Of a stretch of DNA of 64,000 bases, positions 1-47,088 are shown piece by piece. Position 1 is the first letter of the stretch. Each line of letters starts with the position of its first letter. Source of the stretch: Candidatus Rifleibacteriota bacterium (GTDB taxonomy: Bacteria; Muiribacteriota; Ozemobacteria; Ozemobacterales; Ozemobacteraceae); assembly GCA_012520995.1 (NCBI GenBank), contig JAAYNI010000080.1, forward strand, positions 25,823 to 89,822. The letters are read 5' to 3'. Made by a program: the position numbers and the translations under genes. The notes beneath the pieces were generated by a model. It did not search any database. It was not told where the DNA came from and was given only the letters and a program-made list of their open reading frames with translations.

Positions 1-257
1 ACAGCTGCCGATAAAAGCCCTGCAATGAGAGCACCCAACTGAGGAGTCATCCATTTAATGCCGTAAGCGGAAGAAAGATACTTCGCTACGCCAATTCCTC
101 CAAGCAAAGAATGAGCCATAGCCGCAGCAATATAACTGATACGCCTCAAAACCACATAAGTGCCAACAATACCGCTGGTAACACTGCACAATAGGCTGGC
201 TATTAAAGCATTCTGTAAAAAAACAAGCTCAGGCAAATCGTAAAAAAAAGCCAACAT
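1..257 (-). CDS. znuB: Zn/Mn ABC transporter permease (N-terminal part; runs off the window start)
   Basis: Not in the ORF track. Manual translation from ATG at 257 gives MLAFFYDLPELVFLQNALIASLLCSVTSGIVGTYVVLRRISYIAAAMAHSLLGGIG, a typical ZnuB start, directly after the znuC stop at 259. Confidence 0.9.
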   Translation of the reverse strand, partial: MLAFFYDLPELVFLQNALIASLLCSVTSGIVGTYVVLRRISYIAAAMAHSLLGGIGVAKYLSSAYGIKWMTPQLGALIAGLLSAA

Positions 258-41118: not shown

Positions 41119-42282
41119 ATGATTGTTGTTGGCATACCAAAAGAAATTATGCCTGGAGAAGACCGCGTATCGGCCACTCCCGAAACTGTCAAAAAAATGG
41201 TTGACTTAGGCTTCAAAGTAGTATTTGAAGCAGGCGCAGGCGAAGGTTCCTATTACCATGACCCTGAGTACAAAGCGGCAGGCGCTGAAATAGTCGATTG
41301 CGCCTCAAAGGTCTTTGAAAAGGCCAATGTCATACTCAAAGTCAAAGAACCGCTTTTCAACGAAAAGCTGCAAAAACATGAAATAGATTTAATGCATGAA
41401 GGCGAATATCTAATCACCTTCATACATCCTGCAGCTCCAGTAAACCACGAGATGGTCAAAAAGATGGCCGAAAGAGGAATCATCAGCATTACGCTCGATG
41501 GTATTCCCAGAATCACAAGAGCCCAGAAAATGGACGCTCTCACGTCTATGAGTACCTGTGCAGGATACAAAGGCATAATAATGGCGACGGATACTCTGCC
41601 GAAATTTGCGCCTCAAATTTTCACCGCTGTAGGGCAAATAAAACCTATAAACGTGCTTGTAGTAGGCACTGGCGTTGGCGGTCTGCAAGCTATAGCGACA
41701 GCTAAAAGGCTGGGCGCGGTAACTTATGCTGCCGACATCAGACCTGATGCTGCTGAACAAGCTGCTTCTCTCGGGGCCAAAGTCATAGACCTCGGTGTTC
41801 CCAAAGAAGCTGCAATAGGCGAAGGCGGATATGCTCAGGCTCTCTCTGAAGACCTGCTCAAAAAGGAAAGAGCAATACTTAAAGAACATGTCAAAGACAT
41901 GGATATTATATTCCTTTCTGCATTGGTTCCCGGTGAACTGGCTCCCGTTCTGATTACCGAAGAAATGGTTAAGAGCATGAAACCTGGCTCAGTAATAGTC
42001 GACATTTCCATTGACCAAGGCGGAAACTGTGAAATTACCACGCCTGGAAAAACCGAAGAAAAACACCACGTCACAATCTTCGGCATAAAAAACATACCCG
42101 GTCTTCTGCCCACAAGCTCCACCTGGATGTTTTCCAGAAACATTCTCGCCCTGCTTGAATACTTGGTAAAAGACGGTAAAATCGTCCTCGACATGGAAGA
42201 CGAAATAATCAAAAAGTCGCTTACCACCAAGGACGGCAAGATTGTTCACAAGGGCGCGAAAAAAGCCATGGGTCTTGCTTAA
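41119..42282 (+). CDS. pntA: NAD(P) transhydrogenase subunit alpha part 1 (domain I, NAD(H)-binding)
   Basis: GIPKE, RVSATPE, RITRAQKMD (RQD loop), GTGVGGL, GGYA mobile loop, VDISIDQGGNCE. Confidence 0.95.
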   Translation: MIVVGIPKEIMPGEDRVSATPETVKKMVDLGFKVVFEAGAGEGSYYHDPEYKAAGAEIVDCASKVFEKANVILKVKEPLFNEKLQKHEIDLMHEGEYLITFIHPAAPVNHEMVKKMAERGIISITLDGIPRITRAQKMDALTSMSTCAGYKGIIMATDTLPKFAPQIFTAVGQIKPINVLVVGTGVGGLQAIATAKRLGAVTYAADIRPDAAEQAASLGAKVIDLGVPKEAAIGEGGYAQALSEDLLKKERAILKEHVKDMDIIFLSALVPGELAPVLITEEMVKSMKPGSVIVDISIDQGGNCEITTPGKTEEKHHVTIFGIKNIPGLLPTSSTWMFSRNILALLEYLVKDGKIVLDMEDEIIKKSLTTKDGKIVHKGAKKAMGLA

Positions 42283-42372: not shown

Positions 42373-42690
42373 ATGACTGTTTACAACTGGGCTGCGCTGG
42401 TAGTCTTCGCAGTTGCCACATTTTTAGGCTACAAGGTAATAAACACTGTACCAAGCCTTTTACACACCCCCTTAATGTCCGGCATGAACGCCTTTTCAGG
42501 CGTAACACTGCTAGGTTGTCTCACCGCAACCGCCACAGCTGTTGCGGTCGGCGGATGGCTAGGTCGTCTGCTTGGCGCTATAGCAATTATACTTGCAATG
42601 ATAAATCTTGTAGGCGGCTTTGCCGTGACTCACAGAATGCTTAAAATGTTCAGGTCAAAAGATGACCATAAAAAAGAAGGAGACAATTAA
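42373..42690 (+). CDS. NAD(P) transhydrogenase subunit alpha part 2 (membrane)
   Basis: LHTPLMSGMNAFSG and GGFAVTHRMLKMF motifs. Confidence 0.95.
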   Translation: MTVYNWAALVVFAVATFLGYKVINTVPSLLHTPLMSGMNAFSGVTLLGCLTATATAVAVGGWLGRLLGAIAIILAMINLVGGFAVTHRMLKMFRSKDDHKKEGDN

Positions 42691-42692
42691 TC

Positions 42693-45600
42693 ATGCAGCC
42701 TGAACATATATATTATTATTTAGTCTCAATAATTTTCTCTGTCATAGTCCTTTGGGGCATAAGCATGATGAGCAAGGTCAAAACTGCCGTAAAAGGCAAC
42801 CTCATAGGCTCGGCCATCATGGTTCTCGCTATTGGCCTAACTCTCTGGAATTTCAATATTTTCTCAGTAGCAGATTTATGGATAGCTATGCTAATAGGCA
42901 CAGCTCTGGGACTCTGGATGGCCAACAAAGTAAAAATGATCCAAATGCCTCAAATGGTTGGGCTTTTAAACGGATTTGGCGGCGGAGCTTCCATGATAGC
43001 TGGCATCTTAAGCCTTTCAAACCATTACCATTCTCTTGCAACAGAAGCTGTCAAAGGAGCCACTCTAAACAGTTTCGGTCTTTTAACAGCTGCTTTAGCT
43101 GTCTTTACAGGAGCTTTTACTCTTTCGGGCAGTATAGTGGCAGCAGGCAAGCTCCATGGAAAAATCTCGCAAAAACCTAAGTTTTTCCAAGACAACCCTG
43201 ATCGTCATGCCCTGTTATTCACCATAACCCTTATCATCGCCTTGGTAAGCGTTGTTATGATAGCTTTCACGCAAACAGGCGGAATGATCGCATTGATCAC
43301 TGTCTGCACTATTGTAAGTCTTGTATTTGGCGTATTGTTTGCAACACCCGTAGGCGGTGCCGATATGCCCATAACTATCTCACTGCTTAACTCGATGTCA
43401 GGGGTTGCAGGCTCTATAGCAGGTATGGCTATTGATGACTTCCTGCTCGTAGCAGTCGGCGGAATAGTCGGAGCTTCTGGTCTCTTCTTGACGCAAATTA
43501 TGAGCAAGGCAATGAACAGGCCTCTTAAATCTATCCTCTTCCCTAGAGGTTCTAAAAAGAAAACCGATAAAGAAGAGAAAAAATCCGCTCCTGCTCAAAA
43601 ATCAGAACCTCCGAAAACCAAAGAAACTGAAAAAACCGCCGATTCCAAAGATCCGGCTCAATGGCTTAAAGACGCGAAAACCGTTATTATCACTCCTGGT
43701 TACGGCATGGCGGTAGCTCAAGCCCAATCCCTTGTAAAACAGCTTTCAGACAAGCTTGAAGGCATGGGCAAAAAAGTCGAATTCGCGATCCACTCGGTTG
43801 CGGGAAGAATGCCTGGCCACATGAACATACTTCTCGCGGAAGTTGACGTGCCTTATGAAAAGCTTCACGAAATGGATGACATCAACCCGAAATTCAAAGA
43901 AACAGATGTCGCAATAGTGATCGGCGCAAACGACGTTGTAAATCCGGCTGCAAATACCGTTGAAAACACACCTCTCTCGGGAGTTCCTATACTCAACGTA
44001 TCCGAAGCCAAAAAGGTGATTATCTGCAACTTTGATAAAAAACCTGGCTACGCAGGAGTCGATAACCCGCTTTATGAAGAAGGCAAAAAGAATGTCGCTT
44101 TGATGCTGGGAGACGCAAAAGACTCACTCAAAACTTTGCTCGAAGGCCTAAGCTCAGCTTCAAAACCTGCTGCTGAAAGCCAAAAGGCAGCGAATAAAGA
44201 TAATCCTGCCGAATGGCTCAAAGAAGCCAAAACCGTCATTATCACCCCAGGCTACGGCATGGCAGTTGCACAAGCCCAATCCCTTGTAAAACAGCTTTCA
44301 GATAAGCTTGAAAGCATGGGCAAAAAAGTCGAATTTGCGATTCACTCGGTTGCAGGCAGAATGCCTGGCCACATGAACATACTGCTCGCTGAAGTTGACG
44401 TGCCTTACGAAAAGCTCCACGAGATGGACGATATAAATCCGAAATTTAAAGAAACAGATGTAGCAATAGTAATCGGCGCAAACGATGTTGTGAACCCGGC
44501 TGCTAATACAGTAGCGGATACTCCGCTCTCTGGAGTGCCAATACTTAACGTCTCCGAAGCCAAAAAGGTCATTATCTGCAACTTTGATAAAAAGCCTGGT
44601 TACGCAGGAGTGGATAATCCGCTTTATGAAGAAGGCAAAAAGAATGTCGCTTTGATGCTGGGAGACGCGAAAGACTCACTCAAAACCTTGCTTGAAGGCC
44701 TAAGCTCAACTCCCAAACCCGCCGCTGAAAGCAAAAAAGCAGAAGCCGATGACAACAATCCTGCCGAATGGCTTAAAGACGCGAAAACTGTTATTATCAC
44801 CCCAGGTTACGGCATGGCGGTAGCTCAAGCCCAGTCACTTGTAAAACAGCTTTCAGATAAGCTTGAAGGCATGGGCAAAAAGGTCGAATTCGCGATCCAC
44901 TCGGTCGCGGGAAGAATGCCTGGCCACATGAACATACTTCTCGCGGAAGTTGACGTTCCTTACGAAAAACTTCACGAAATGGATGATATAAACCCGAAAT
45001 TCAAAGAAACAGATGTCGCAATAGTAATCGGCGCAAACGATGTTGTGAACCCGGCTGCCAATACAGTAGAAGACACCCCGCTCTCAGGAGTTCCCATACT
45101 TAACGTATCGGAAGCCAAAAAGGTCATTATCTGCAACTTCGATAAAAAGCCAGGTTACGCAGGAGTTGATAACCCGCTTTATGAAGAAGGCAAAAAAAAT
45201 GTCGCTTTGATGCTGGGAGACGCAAAAGACTCACTCAAATCTCTCTTGGAAGGTTTAAGCTCTACTGCAAAACCTGCCACAACTGACAAGAAAGCCGCTT
45301 CTTCAACGAAAGATCCGGCCAAGTGGCTGAAAGATGCTAAAAGTGTTATAATTACTCCTGGCTACGGCATGGCAGTCGCGCAAGCCCAGTCGCTTGTAAA
45401 ACAGTTAGCCGACAAGCTTGAAGGCATGGGCAAAAAAGTCGAATTCGCGATCCACTCGGTCGCGGGAAGAATGCCTGGCCATATGAACATACTTCTCGCA
45501 GAAGTTGACGTGCCTTATGAAAAACTTCACGAAATGGACGATATAAACCCCGAGTTCAAAAACACGGATGTAGCTATAGTTATAGGTGCAAACGACGTTG

Positions 45601-45815
45601 TGAACCCGGCCGCCAACACAGTTGAAGATACGCCGCTTTCGGGAGTTCCCATACTCAACGTCTCTGAAGCGAAAAAAGTGATAATTTGCAACTTCGACAA
45701 AAAACCCGGTTATGCCGGAGTAGATAACCCGCTCTACGAAGACGGGCAAGAAAATGTAGCCCTTATGCTTGGAGATGCGAAAGACTCACTTAAATCACTT
45801 TTGGAAAAACTCTAA
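42693..45815 (+). CDS. pntB: NAD(P) transhydrogenase subunit beta with four tandem domain III copies
   Basis: Membrane part with MPQMVGLLNGFGG, GGADMP, LLNS, KAMNR; then four copies of PGYGMAVAQ / HSVAGRMPGHMN / GANDVVNPAA / GYAGVDNPL / GDAK. Confidence 0.95.
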   Translation: MQPEHIYYYLVSIIFSVIVLWGISMMSKVKTAVKGNLIGSAIMVLAIGLTLWNFNIFSVADLWIAMLIGTALGLWMANKVKMIQMPQMVGLLNGFGGGASMIAGILSLSNHYHSLATEAVKGATLNSFGLLTAALAVFTGAFTLSGSIVAAGKLHGKISQKPKFFQDNPDRHALLFTITLIIALVSVVMIAFTQTGGMIALITVCTIVSLVFGVLFATPVGGADMPITISLLNSMSGVAGSIAGMAIDDFLLVAVGGIVGASGLFLTQIMSKAMNRPLKSILFPRGSKKKTDKEEKKSAPAQKSEPPKTKETEKTADSKDPAQWLKDAKTVIITPGYGMAVAQAQSLVKQLSDKLEGMGKKVEFAIHSVAGRMPGHMNILLAEVDVPYEKLHEMDDINPKFKETDVAIVIGANDVVNPAANTVENTPLSGVPILNVSEAKKVIICNFDKKPGYAGVDNPLYEEGKKNVALMLGDAKDSLKTLLEGLSSASKPAAESQKAANKDNPAEWLKEAKTVIITPGYGMAVAQAQSLVKQLSDKLESMGKKVEFAIHSVAGRMPGHMNILLAEVDVPYEKLHEMDDINPKFKETDVAIVIGANDVVNPAANTVADTPLSGVPILNVSEAKKVIICNFDKKPGYAGVDNPLYEEGKKNVALMLGDAKDSLKTLLEGLSSTPKPAAESKKAEADDNNPAEWLKDAKTVIITPGYGMAVAQAQSLVKQLSDKLEGMGKKVEFAIHSVAGRMPGHMNILLAEVDVPYEKLHEMDDINPKFKETDVAIVIGANDVVNPAANTVEDTPLSGVPILNVSEAKKVIICNFDKKPGYAGVDNPLYEEGKKNVALMLGDAKDSLKSLLEGLSSTAKPATTDKKAASSTKDPAKWLKDAKSVIITPGYGMAVAQAQSLVKQLADKLEGMGKKVEFAIHSVAGRMPGHMNILLAEVDVPYEKLHEMDDINPEFKNTDVAIVIGANDVVNPAANTVEDTPLSGVPILNVSEAKKVIICNFDKKPGYAGVDNPLYEDGQENVALMLGDAKDSLKSLLEKL
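43650..45815 (+). repeat. Four tandem repeats of about 553 bp encoding PntB domain III
   Basis: Units start at 43650, 44202, 44757 and 45312 (periods 552, 555, 555 bp); many synonymous differences; distinct linkers. Confidence 0.97.
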
Positions 45816-46534
45816 TGACTATAGCGAATAAATATGCGGACAGGACAGTTCCTTCAATAACTGAACAGATTATGCAGCTAAGACAAATTTACACAGATCT
45901 CTTTTTCAAACTTATATCTTTCACTCTAGATGATGAATTTTTCCAATATATGGGCGAAGCCTTGGAATTTTTCTACAATCTGGAAGAAGGCGACGAATAC
46001 GAGTTTGATGCTGAAAATGAACTGCTCTTTCTTTCATGGTATCTGCTTGATGACGCTGACGCATATGGAAACGCTCTCATTGATGAGTTTCTTAGAAGAC
46101 ACGCTGGCAGCGATCTGCTTTCCGTCACGGAAAAGCAGATCGCCGTAGCTTTGAAGCAAACCTATTTATCAGTTTATACTGTTGAAGAAGTGACTCCAGG
46201 AGAATCAATGATTCTTAAGGATCTGTTCAGCGGCAAGACTTATAAAGTATTAGAAGCTTCCGGAACAAAAGTGATTGAAAAGGGCTCTACAGTTCATACC
46301 AGACTTCTGCTATTAGGCAAAACCTCTTTCATGGTAGGCGCCGCAGTGGTAATGACTCCGGAAATGGGTCCGGCAATAGCGGAGTTTATAACAGAACAAT
46401 ACAAAGAACAGTGTGAAGAAGGTTATAAGGCTTCTTTCAAAGACTTTCTGAAAAACAGCGGTGAATTAGTCACTTGGTGGCTGAGAGCCAATGAATATAA
46501 AGATGTGCCTAACGCGTCCACAGAACTCTTATGA
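45815..46534 (+). CDS. Hypothetical acidic protein translationally coupled to pntB
   Basis: TAATG overlap with the pntB stop; 239-aa ORF with normal composition; no family recognised with confidence. Confidence 0.75.
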   Translation: MTIANKYADRTVPSITEQIMQLRQIYTDLFFKLISFTLDDEFFQYMGEALEFFYNLEEGDEYEFDAENELLFLSWYLLDDADAYGNALIDEFLRRHAGSDLLSVTEKQIAVALKQTYLSVYTVEEVTPGESMILKDLFSGKTYKVLEASGTKVIEKGSTVHTRLLLLGKTSFMVGAAVVMTPEMGPAIAEFITEQYKEQCEEGYKASFKDFLKNSGELVTWWLRANEYKDVPNASTELL

Positions 46535-47088
46535 AGGAAAAAAACACCAAGACAGTAACTGTATTTTGTGCCTCTTCAGACAATCTTTCTGAGCAAATAA
46601 AGCTCTTATCAGCAAGATTCGCTGAGCTTTTGGCTAAAAAAAATTGCCACATGATATACGGCGGTACTTCTACAGGCCTTATGGGAACAATAGCAAACGC
46701 TTATAAAGAAGCGGGAGGCCATCTTATAGGAATTGTGCCTGAATATTTCATCAAAAGAGGCGAAAAATACAGCCTCTTGGATGAAACTCACTACGTTTCC
46801 TCTGTAAGCGAACGCAAACAGATGATGGTAAAACTCTCTGACGCTCTGATTATGCTGCCAGGCGGAATAGGAACCTATGACGAGTTCTTTGACGCGCTAG
46901 CGCGAAAACAGCTCGGACAATGCGTGGCCTCCATTTACATTTTTAATGCCTGCGGCTTTTATGACAAGTTTCTGGAAATGCTTGCTTATGGAGTAGAAAA
47001 TGGAGCCATAACGAGTGAAACAATGCAGCTTTTCAAGGTATTCGACTCTCCCGAGAAACTGGCGGAAGACATTAACTTAAAACAGTGA
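46531..47088 (+). CDS. LOG-family (TIGR00730) nucleoside monophosphate phosphoribohydrolase
   Basis: VFCASS, YGG...GLMG, ERKQMM, PGGIGTYDE. Confidence 0.92.
   Translation: MKEKNTKTVTVFCASSDNLSEQIKLLSARFAELLAKKNCHMIYGGTSTGLMGTIANAYKEAGGHLIGIVPEYFIKRGEKYSLLDETHYVSSVSERKQMMVKLSDALIMLPGGIGTYDEFFDALARKQLGQCVASIYIFNACGFYDKFLEMLAYGVENGAITSETMQLFKVFDSPEKLAEDINLKQ

Follow-up and report, generated by a model that had tools for sequence, protein, structure and literature searches.

Described membrane transhydrogenases and the Rifleibacteriota locus

To our knowledge, all mechanistic work on the membrane transhydrogenase, whether from Escherichia coli, Rhodospirillum rubrum, Thermus thermophilus or mitochondria (NNT), has been carried out on enzymes with a Lys-Arg-Ser (K-R-S) motif in the nucleotide-binding domain dIII. 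This motif is taken to explain both the NADP selectivity of dIII and the very tight NADP(H) binding that underlies the binding-change mechanism. Residues K424, R425 and S426 constitute the 'KRS motif' of the NADPH site (PMC9529548), Arg425 and Pro346 are among the NADP+ contacts (PMC13635403), and position 346 and loop D are both part of the nucleotide site (PMC9529548, PMC13635403). Here we describe a pntB gene of a Candidatus Rifleibacteriota bacterium, located on contig JAAYNI010000080.1 within the 64-kb stretch of DNA that was analyzed (hereafter the window), in which each of four tandem dIII domains carries N-F-D instead of K-R-S. The gene (42693..45815, plus strand) encodes a 1040 aa protein consisting of the dII membrane domain followed by the four dIII, as recognized from the translation of its open reading frame (ORF) and from matches to PF02233 and NF006974. 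Judged from its sequence, the locus is a complete three-subunit ion-coupled transhydrogenase, belonging to a deep branch, widespread among anaerobes, in which an N-x-D motif takes the place of KRS.

The closest described systems are the PntAA/PntAB/PntB enzymes of T. thermophilus and R. rubrum (4O9U, 4J16, 1HZZ, 1PNO), which share with the window enzyme the gene order and subunit split, the RQD loop and NAD Rossmann Asp of the NAD(H)-binding domain dI, the equivalents of D213, N222 and R265, the Asn at the position of H91, and a histidine located in the small alpha2 subunit. Their dIII fold matches that of the window dIII (template-modelling score, TM, ~0.9; 49-52% identity). By contrast, the window enzyme contains N-F-D for K-R-S/G, four dIII on flexible linkers (~15-20 residues) rather than one, the substitutions D401A, P402E, S404T and F439Y, and one extra residue following position 440. 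The E. coli enzyme PntAB (2BRU, 9L76) is composed of two subunits rather than three, and its dIII is 52% identical, with Y315, R350, D392, G430-G433 and D450 all conserved in the window enzyme; however, the latter lacks KRS, with Arg425 replaced by Phe, and has Ser for Pro346. Of the features by which PntAB (EC 7.1.1.1) is usually recognized, dI (Pfam matches with E-values of 1e-59 and 3e-43), dII with its coupling residues, and the dIII fold with its nicotinamide and pyrophosphate contacts are present in the window, and two are missing from its PntB, namely the K-R-S/G motif and a single dIII per beta subunit, there being four here. No description of an N-x-D or multi-dIII PntB was found in full-text searches of the literature. 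The N-x-D PntB subfamily, which corresponds to no named family, is defined here from shared residues (N424, D426, P429 and Y439, usually with Cys423) and from its monophyly against K-R-x dIII, and the window protein is assigned to it on the same grounds.

Residues replaced and retained at the nucleotide site

A preliminary description of this DNA had reported that NFD replaces KRS in all four dIII, and the alignments bear this out: each copy reads VIICNFDKKPGYAG where E. coli PntB reads VIVFKRSMNTGYAG, with no gap between them. In a phmmer search against PDB sequences, KVIICNFDKKPGYAG likewise lay gap-free on E. coli NVIVFKRSMNTGYAG around the motif, and the same dIII stretch, 'kviicnfdkkpgyag', was aligned to 'nvivfkrsmntgyag' of E. 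coli, 'IKRGQGKGFAG' of T. thermophilus and 'IKRSMASGYAG' of R. rubrum. Because this alignment is gap-free, N, F and D occupy the positions of K424, R425 and S426. The N-F-D codons lie at 44028-44036, 44580-44588, 45135-45143 and 45690-45698 in copies 1-4 (plus strand), as placed by alignment and by the AlphaFold2 (AF2) model, in which a strand of copy 1 ends on the Asn. The motif HPVAGR reads HSVAGR (P346S) in all four copies, located by motif scan at 43791-43808, 44343-44360, 44898-44915 and 45453-45470 (plus strand). The remaining motifs were found intact (GYGMAVAQ and GANDVVN, each four times; GGADMP, LLNS and AMNR), as was the dI RQD loop, in which R-x4-Q-x2-D is present. The canonical 2'-phosphate clamp is lost in this PntB, as the preliminary description held. 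Since the four copies are paralogues, their agreement does not represent four independent events, and the meaningful statistic is conservation across the family. All dIII of the comparison set, a small one, are K-R-x, including 11/11 references (8 plasmid-borne genes and 3 PDB sequences, the latter through their alignments) and 77 domains from a representative library.

The family-wide comparison involved 880 distinct N-x-D dIII domains, from PntB with 1-5 dIII copies in Clostridia, Bacteroidales, Desulfovibrio and further anaerobes, and 11 K-R-x domains. N424, D426, P429 and Y439 are ~100% conserved in the N-x-D dIII and Cys423 is 88% conserved, with N424 and D426 being the strictest of the clade-specific positions; position 439 is Tyr in the N-x-D clade and Phe in the K-R-x enzymes. 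The residue between Asn and Asp, for the most part a hydrophobic one, is Tyr in 50% of the domains, Phe in 41% and Leu in 9%, and the wider library adds Ile, Met, Trp and Arg at this position (425). Other clade-specific changes are V319L, E328Q, D401A, P402E, S404T, V422I, T444V, M446L, F448L, and the one-residue insert after 440. The contacts to nicotinamide, pyrophosphate and adenine are unchanged across the 880 dIII (Y315, H345-R350, G389-D392, G430-G433 and D450).

The rest of the enzyme is similarly conservative. Neither clade varies in dI at the RQD loop, at GxGxxG or at the Asp206 that closes beta2 ('DIRP'), all of them 100% conserved, and a swap of nucleotide specificity from dIII to dI was considered and ruled out, because Asp206 and the entire dI NAD site are unchanged. 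In dII, D213, N222, R265 and S139 are conserved across the N-x-D clade. Asn occupies the position of E. coli betaH91 (42963-42965 in the window, located through an alignment with Klebsiella PntB) in 96% of the N-x-D PntB proteins, as it does in some three-subunit K-R-x enzymes, and the small subunit PntAB retains the histidine of LHTPLMS.

The preliminary description also raised the possibility that the shifted Lys-Lys pair following NFD compensates for the loss of KRS. The pair is not a family feature: 21% of the 880 domains (for example those reading C-N-Y-D-L-N-P) have no Lys/Arg at 427/428. Position 428 is Lys in 70% of domains and position 427 is mostly Leu or Thr; 79% of domains have a Lys/Arg at 427/428, and 97% have one either there or at 440-442. 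As for a compensating basic residue elsewhere in the domain, comparison of domains with and without K428 gave modest enrichment at 380, 399 and 440/441, none of these positions being invariant.

Integrity of the four dIII copies

The four dIII copies show pairwise identities of 90-96% at the amino-acid level and 80-91% at the nucleotide level, and the ratio of nonsynonymous to synonymous substitutions (dN/dS) is 0.03-0.05 for all pairs, at dS of 0.45-2.0, indicating strong purifying selection. The AF2 model of the whole PntB comprises confident domains connected by low-confidence linkers (residues 287-318, 489-502, 673-687 and 858-872), and the model of a single dIII, with a predicted local distance difference test (pLDDT) score of 88, superimposes on the solved NADP-bound dIII structures with TM 0.89-0.93 and a root-mean-square deviation of 1.3-1.6 A. 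From these sequence and model data, all four dIII copies are predicted to be functional.

Besides the clade-wide changes, the window PntB has changes of its own in the nucleotide site. HSVAGR is unique to this protein, as all other 841 dIII among the matches of two 120-homologue searches read HPVAGR. Loop D reads 'TPLSGVP' in copies 1-4 (43968-43988, 44520-44540, 45075-45095 and 45630-45650, plus strand) and 'TPIYGMP' in the family, corresponding to I406L, Y407S and M409V; in the rest of the clade these positions are strongly conserved (346 P 100%, 406 I 99%, 407 Y 95%, 409 M 98%). Since P346S and the loop D changes are common to four copies that differ by dS of 0.45-2.0, they would be either older than the duplications or spread by gene conversion.

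Distribution and origin of the N-x-D motif

The 120 best homologues of the full-length protein are PntB of ~880-1230 aa with 3-5 dIII, every one of which reads N-[Y/F/L]-D, and a query with one dIII retrieved, as its 120 best homologues, almost exclusively three-dIII proteins that also carry N-x-D. A shorter query, which sizes out the multi-copy proteins, recovered ~90 full-length PntB with a single dIII (459-483 aa), and these also read C-N-[Y/F]-D-x-K-P-G-Y-A-G. The correlation of N-x-D with dIII multiplication that the preliminary description had raised as a matter for phylogeny is therefore not upheld, since these ~90 single-dIII PntB carry the motif. Among single-copy N-x-D forms in the representative library, 'N-L-D-x-R-P' is common.

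At the genome level, N-x-D was found in all 80 related loci examined, with 1-4 dIII copies, in Bacteroidales (Porphyromonas, Dysgonomonadaceae, Prevotella), many Clostridia, Desulfovibrio, Limnochordia and Atribacteria. The gene order pntAA-pntAB-pntB is kept in 78-79 of the 80, and clustering of their flanking ORFs revealed no gene conserved beside pntB other than pntAA and pntAB. Desulfovibrio falkowii contains two N-x-D pnt operons (L011 and L034) ~48 kb apart on one contig, one with four dIII and the other with three.

An exhaustive search of a 50%-identity library yielded, among the best 150 proteins, roughly 85 with K-R-x and 55-60 with N-x-D. The dIII tree built from these 150 has a single split between K-R-x (80 rows) and N-x-D (67 rows), and a tree of dII plus the first dIII from 116 representatives, with six K-R-x outgroups, recovers the same split; both received a value of 100 in the Shimodaira-Hasegawa-like approximate likelihood ratio test (SH-aLRT), the sole support measure for these trees, which came from quick searches. 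In the 116-representative tree, the copy number of dIII changes at least 34 times within the N-x-D clade, and purely single-copy subclades are present. The window PntB falls within this clade, beside three-copy enzymes of the Clostridia type (best identity 64%). Because the trees contain one split, with the copy-number changes and single-copy subclades lying inside the clade, the N-x-D motif is, on this phylogeny, ancient and of single origin, and predates the dIII multiplications. N-R-D variants (P0372, P0373, P0399, P0400 and P0491), which retain the Arg of KRS between Asn and Asp, are scattered in the clade and not basal.

Intact multi-copy dIII proteins are almost confined to the N-x-D clade. 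In two proteins, P0375 (664 aa, K-R-S) and P0377 (659 aa, N-L-D), the first dIII is intact and the second clearly degenerate, with readings such as HPLAGHMPGH / GYGAGRAQAQ and HPYAGRILGH / N-L-A, from which it appears that dIII duplication has also occurred outside the N-x-D clade and that extra copies can decay. The short K-R-S 'two-dIII' proteins P0374 and P0378 are fragment-like, with partial internal repeats, and are possibly assembly artefacts.

Comparison with sirtuins

After the transhydrogenases, the structures closest in fold to the modelled dIII are thiamine diphosphate (ThDP) enzyme middle domains and human SIRT2 (TMq 0.56 for SIRT2). Sir2/CobB profiles match dIII weakly (46 bits, against a cut-off of 243). 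In profile-profile comparison, for which eight real sirtuin genes were used, AKKVIICNFDKKPGY is placed on CobB AHTVELNLEPSQVG, with Asn on Asn and Asp on Glu, in a weak match (Prob 54%, E 1e-4) in which the aligned stretches are 'VIICNFD' and 'VELNLE'; the K-R-x dIII profile loses this Asn/Glu register with CobB. Among the sirtuins themselves, a PDB alignment places 'ELNLEP' of CobB on 'EINPDE' of Sir2-Af1 (N-P-D). The beta strand of the dIII model terminates exactly at the motif Asn, and in the sirtuins Sir2-Af1 (1ICI), CobB (1S5P) and SIRT2 an Asn likewise ends the strand, with an acidic residue two positions on (N-P-D, N-L-E and N-K-E, respectively). The Asn of the SIRT2 N-x-E motif is reported to be 93% conserved among sirtuins, and the Glu hydrogen-bonds both adenine-ribose hydroxyls of NAD+. 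The adenine and its ribose are in contact with Asn286 and Lys287 of SIRT2 (PMC12439037).

Thus N-x-D appears to match, in form and in strand position, a clamp for unphosphorylated adenosine ribose in related folds, a parallel newly drawn here from a weak alignment and fold-level homology. The likeness of the two adenosine sub-sites may be ancestral or convergent. Sirtuins differ from dIII in that they cleave NAD+ and possess a zinc module and a catalytic His, whereas dIII has neither and transfers hydride. Membership of PntB in the Sir2 family, as defined by the catalytic His, the zinc-binding module and the GAGxS NAD motif, was considered and rejected, the profile matches being local and far below the cut-offs; the likeness extends no further than the fold and the N-x-D/E sub-site.

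Cofactor of the N-x-D dIII

We consider it about an even chance (a probability of roughly 0.5) that NADP(H) is still the substrate of dIII, bound in a non-canonical manner. In such an enzyme, the partners in hydride transfer would be NAD(H) at dI and NADP(H) at dIII, the Asn and Asp would bind the ribose 3'-OH, and the 2'-phosphate would be met only by backbone amides, Tyr439, the nearby variable Lys/Arg, or a bound cation, with nucleotide binding being weaker and exchange faster than in K-R-S enzymes. Because no partner gene points to another acceptor and the nicotinamide half-site is unchanged, the dIII ligand should be either NAD(H) or NADP(H). If both sites drew on a single NAD(H) pool, moving hydride from one to the other would yield no free energy for pump coupling. 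With the NAD(H) determinants of dI and the coupling residues of dII both kept, NAD(H) at dIII would leave the reaction without a driving force. Given a dI that stays of the NAD(H) type and a coupling machinery that is retained, two different redox pools must still be linked, which makes NADP(H) the most likely ligand. Several points weigh against NADP(H). Where K-R-S enzymes have their phosphate-binding Ser, the clade has an invariant Asp, a classic determinant against NADP, and in E. coli mutagenesis the loss of K424 or of R425 severely impairs the binding of NADP(H). The clade lacks any invariant basic residue, and 3% of the domains have no Lys/Arg at either 427/428 or 440-442. On structural grounds, the best case for a 2' sub-site that has ceased to read a phosphate canonically comes, by analogy, from the sirtuin parallel. 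A search of the full-text literature found no assay of any member of the N-x-D clade.

A rival explanation, close to the suggestion in the preliminary description that dIII uses NAD(H) or another dinucleotide, is a changed cofactor: a ribose-diol clamp like that of sirtuins may let dIII hold a nicotinamide adenine dinucleotide whose 2'-OH is free, either NAD(H) or some unrecognised relative. The 'PntAB' enzymes of the clade would in that case not be NAD/NADP transhydrogenases, but would carry out a different hydride transfer coupled to ions, or employ NAD(H) on dIII as a tethered carrier of hydride. It would account for the invariance of N424 and D426 together with the loss of both K424 and R425, for the alignment of N-x-D with N-L-E of CobB and its counterparts in Sir2-Af1 (N-P-D) and SIRT2, whose Glu binds both ribose hydroxyls, and for the AF2 strand ending on the Asn in a fold whose next neighbours are sirtuins and ThDP enzymes, with weak Sir2 profile matches. 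However, dI is still of the NAD(H) type, and an NAD/NAD exchange would merely dissipate the ion gradient; no conserved partner gene for another acceptor accompanies the operon, the nicotinamide half-site does not differ from the one in NADP enzymes, and the statistics of the alignment between dIII and sirtuins are weak (Prob 54%, E 1e-4). Of the earlier suggestion, the loss of the clamp stands and is strengthened by the invariant N424/D426 and the sirtuin-like form of the motif, while the change of cofactor is opposed by the NAD(H)-type dI and the missing driving force, and we regard it as possible but distinctly the less probable outcome.

Relaxed or dual specificity, with dIII taking both NAD(H) and NADP(H), the direction set by cellular ratios and several low-affinity heads offsetting weak binding, would be in keeping with the variability of residue 425 (Y/F/W/L/I/M/R) and of the nearby basic residues, and with the near restriction of intact multi-copy dIII to the N-x-D clade. 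It seems unlikely to us, as NAD(H) at dIII would short-circuit the pump and should be opposed by selection, and the lack of variation at Asn and Asp speaks for a ligand held in a defined geometry. The degenerate second dIII of P0375 (K-R-x) and P0377 (N-x-D) bring to mind a further explanation, that the extra copies, or all copies, are decaying non-binding modules in which the odd motif reflects loss of function. This is contradicted by the dN/dS of 0.03-0.05 between all copy pairs, by the intactness of every other ligand-contact motif in each copy, and by the invariance of the motif across hundreds of lineages, single-copy enzymes included, and is highly improbable.

Either of the leading explanations has consequences for a second branch of transhydrogenases, as deep as the first but devoid of KRS, which is common in gut, oral and digester anaerobes (Porphyromonas, Prevotella, Christensenella, Desulfovibrio). 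If NADP(H) is the ligand, it would be selected in quite a different manner from that of the K-R-S enzymes, with a bearing on affinity, gating and the tolerance of several heads. If the cofactor is changed, automatic annotation and metabolic models would be crediting NADPH production to enzymes that do something else, and a substantial part of the genes annotated as 'PntAB' in anaerobes (roughly 4/10 of the best 150 representative clusters) would be ion-coupled hydride-transfer enzymes of a different chemistry, possibly with tethered dIII-NAD(H) heads as mobile carriers.

Operon layout and neighbouring genes

The transhydrogenase operon of the window comprises three co-directional genes on the plus strand, pntAA, pntAB and pntB. 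The dI NAD(H)-binding subunit is encoded by pntAA (41119..42282, 387 aa; Pfam AlaDh_PNT_N and AlaDh_PNT_C), and the four-transmembrane part of dII, carrying the LHTPLMS histidine, by pntAB (42373..42690, 105 aa; Pfam PNTB_4TM, E 9e-30). In pntB, the dII part (42693..43550), identified by its motifs and by AF2 helices, contains GGADMP (its Asp being E. coli D213), LLNS (N222) and AMNR (R265), and has Asn at the position of E. coli H91. It is joined to the first dIII by a Lys/Glu/Pro-rich linker (43551..43643; pLDDT <50 over residues 287-318). The four dIII are encoded at 43644..44147 (copy 1, residues 318-485, delimited by its 52% identity to E. coli dIII and by the AF2 model), 44196..44699 (copy 2, residues 502-669), 44751..45254 (copy 3, residues 687-854) and 45306..45809 (copy 4, residues 872-1039), all on the plus strand; no dIII is encoded outside pntB in the 64-kb window.

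Both Pfam PF02233 and NCBIfam NF006974 match PntB in four stretches each. At the DNA level, a repeat search found a period of 552-555 nt with 85-93% identity over a 300-nt core; Tandem Repeats Finder reported no repeat in pntB, the period of >500 nt being beyond its reach. An identical PntB protein is encoded on a contig from a biogas-fermenter metagenome.

Two genes adjoin pntB downstream, neither of which was found beside pntB in any of the 80 related loci. A DUF7986 gene (45815-46534, 239 aa) has a start that overlaps the pntB stop codon, and is in turn overlapped by 4 nt by a LOG/SLOG-family gene (46531-47088), an arrangement of overlapping genes that suggests co-transcription with pntB.

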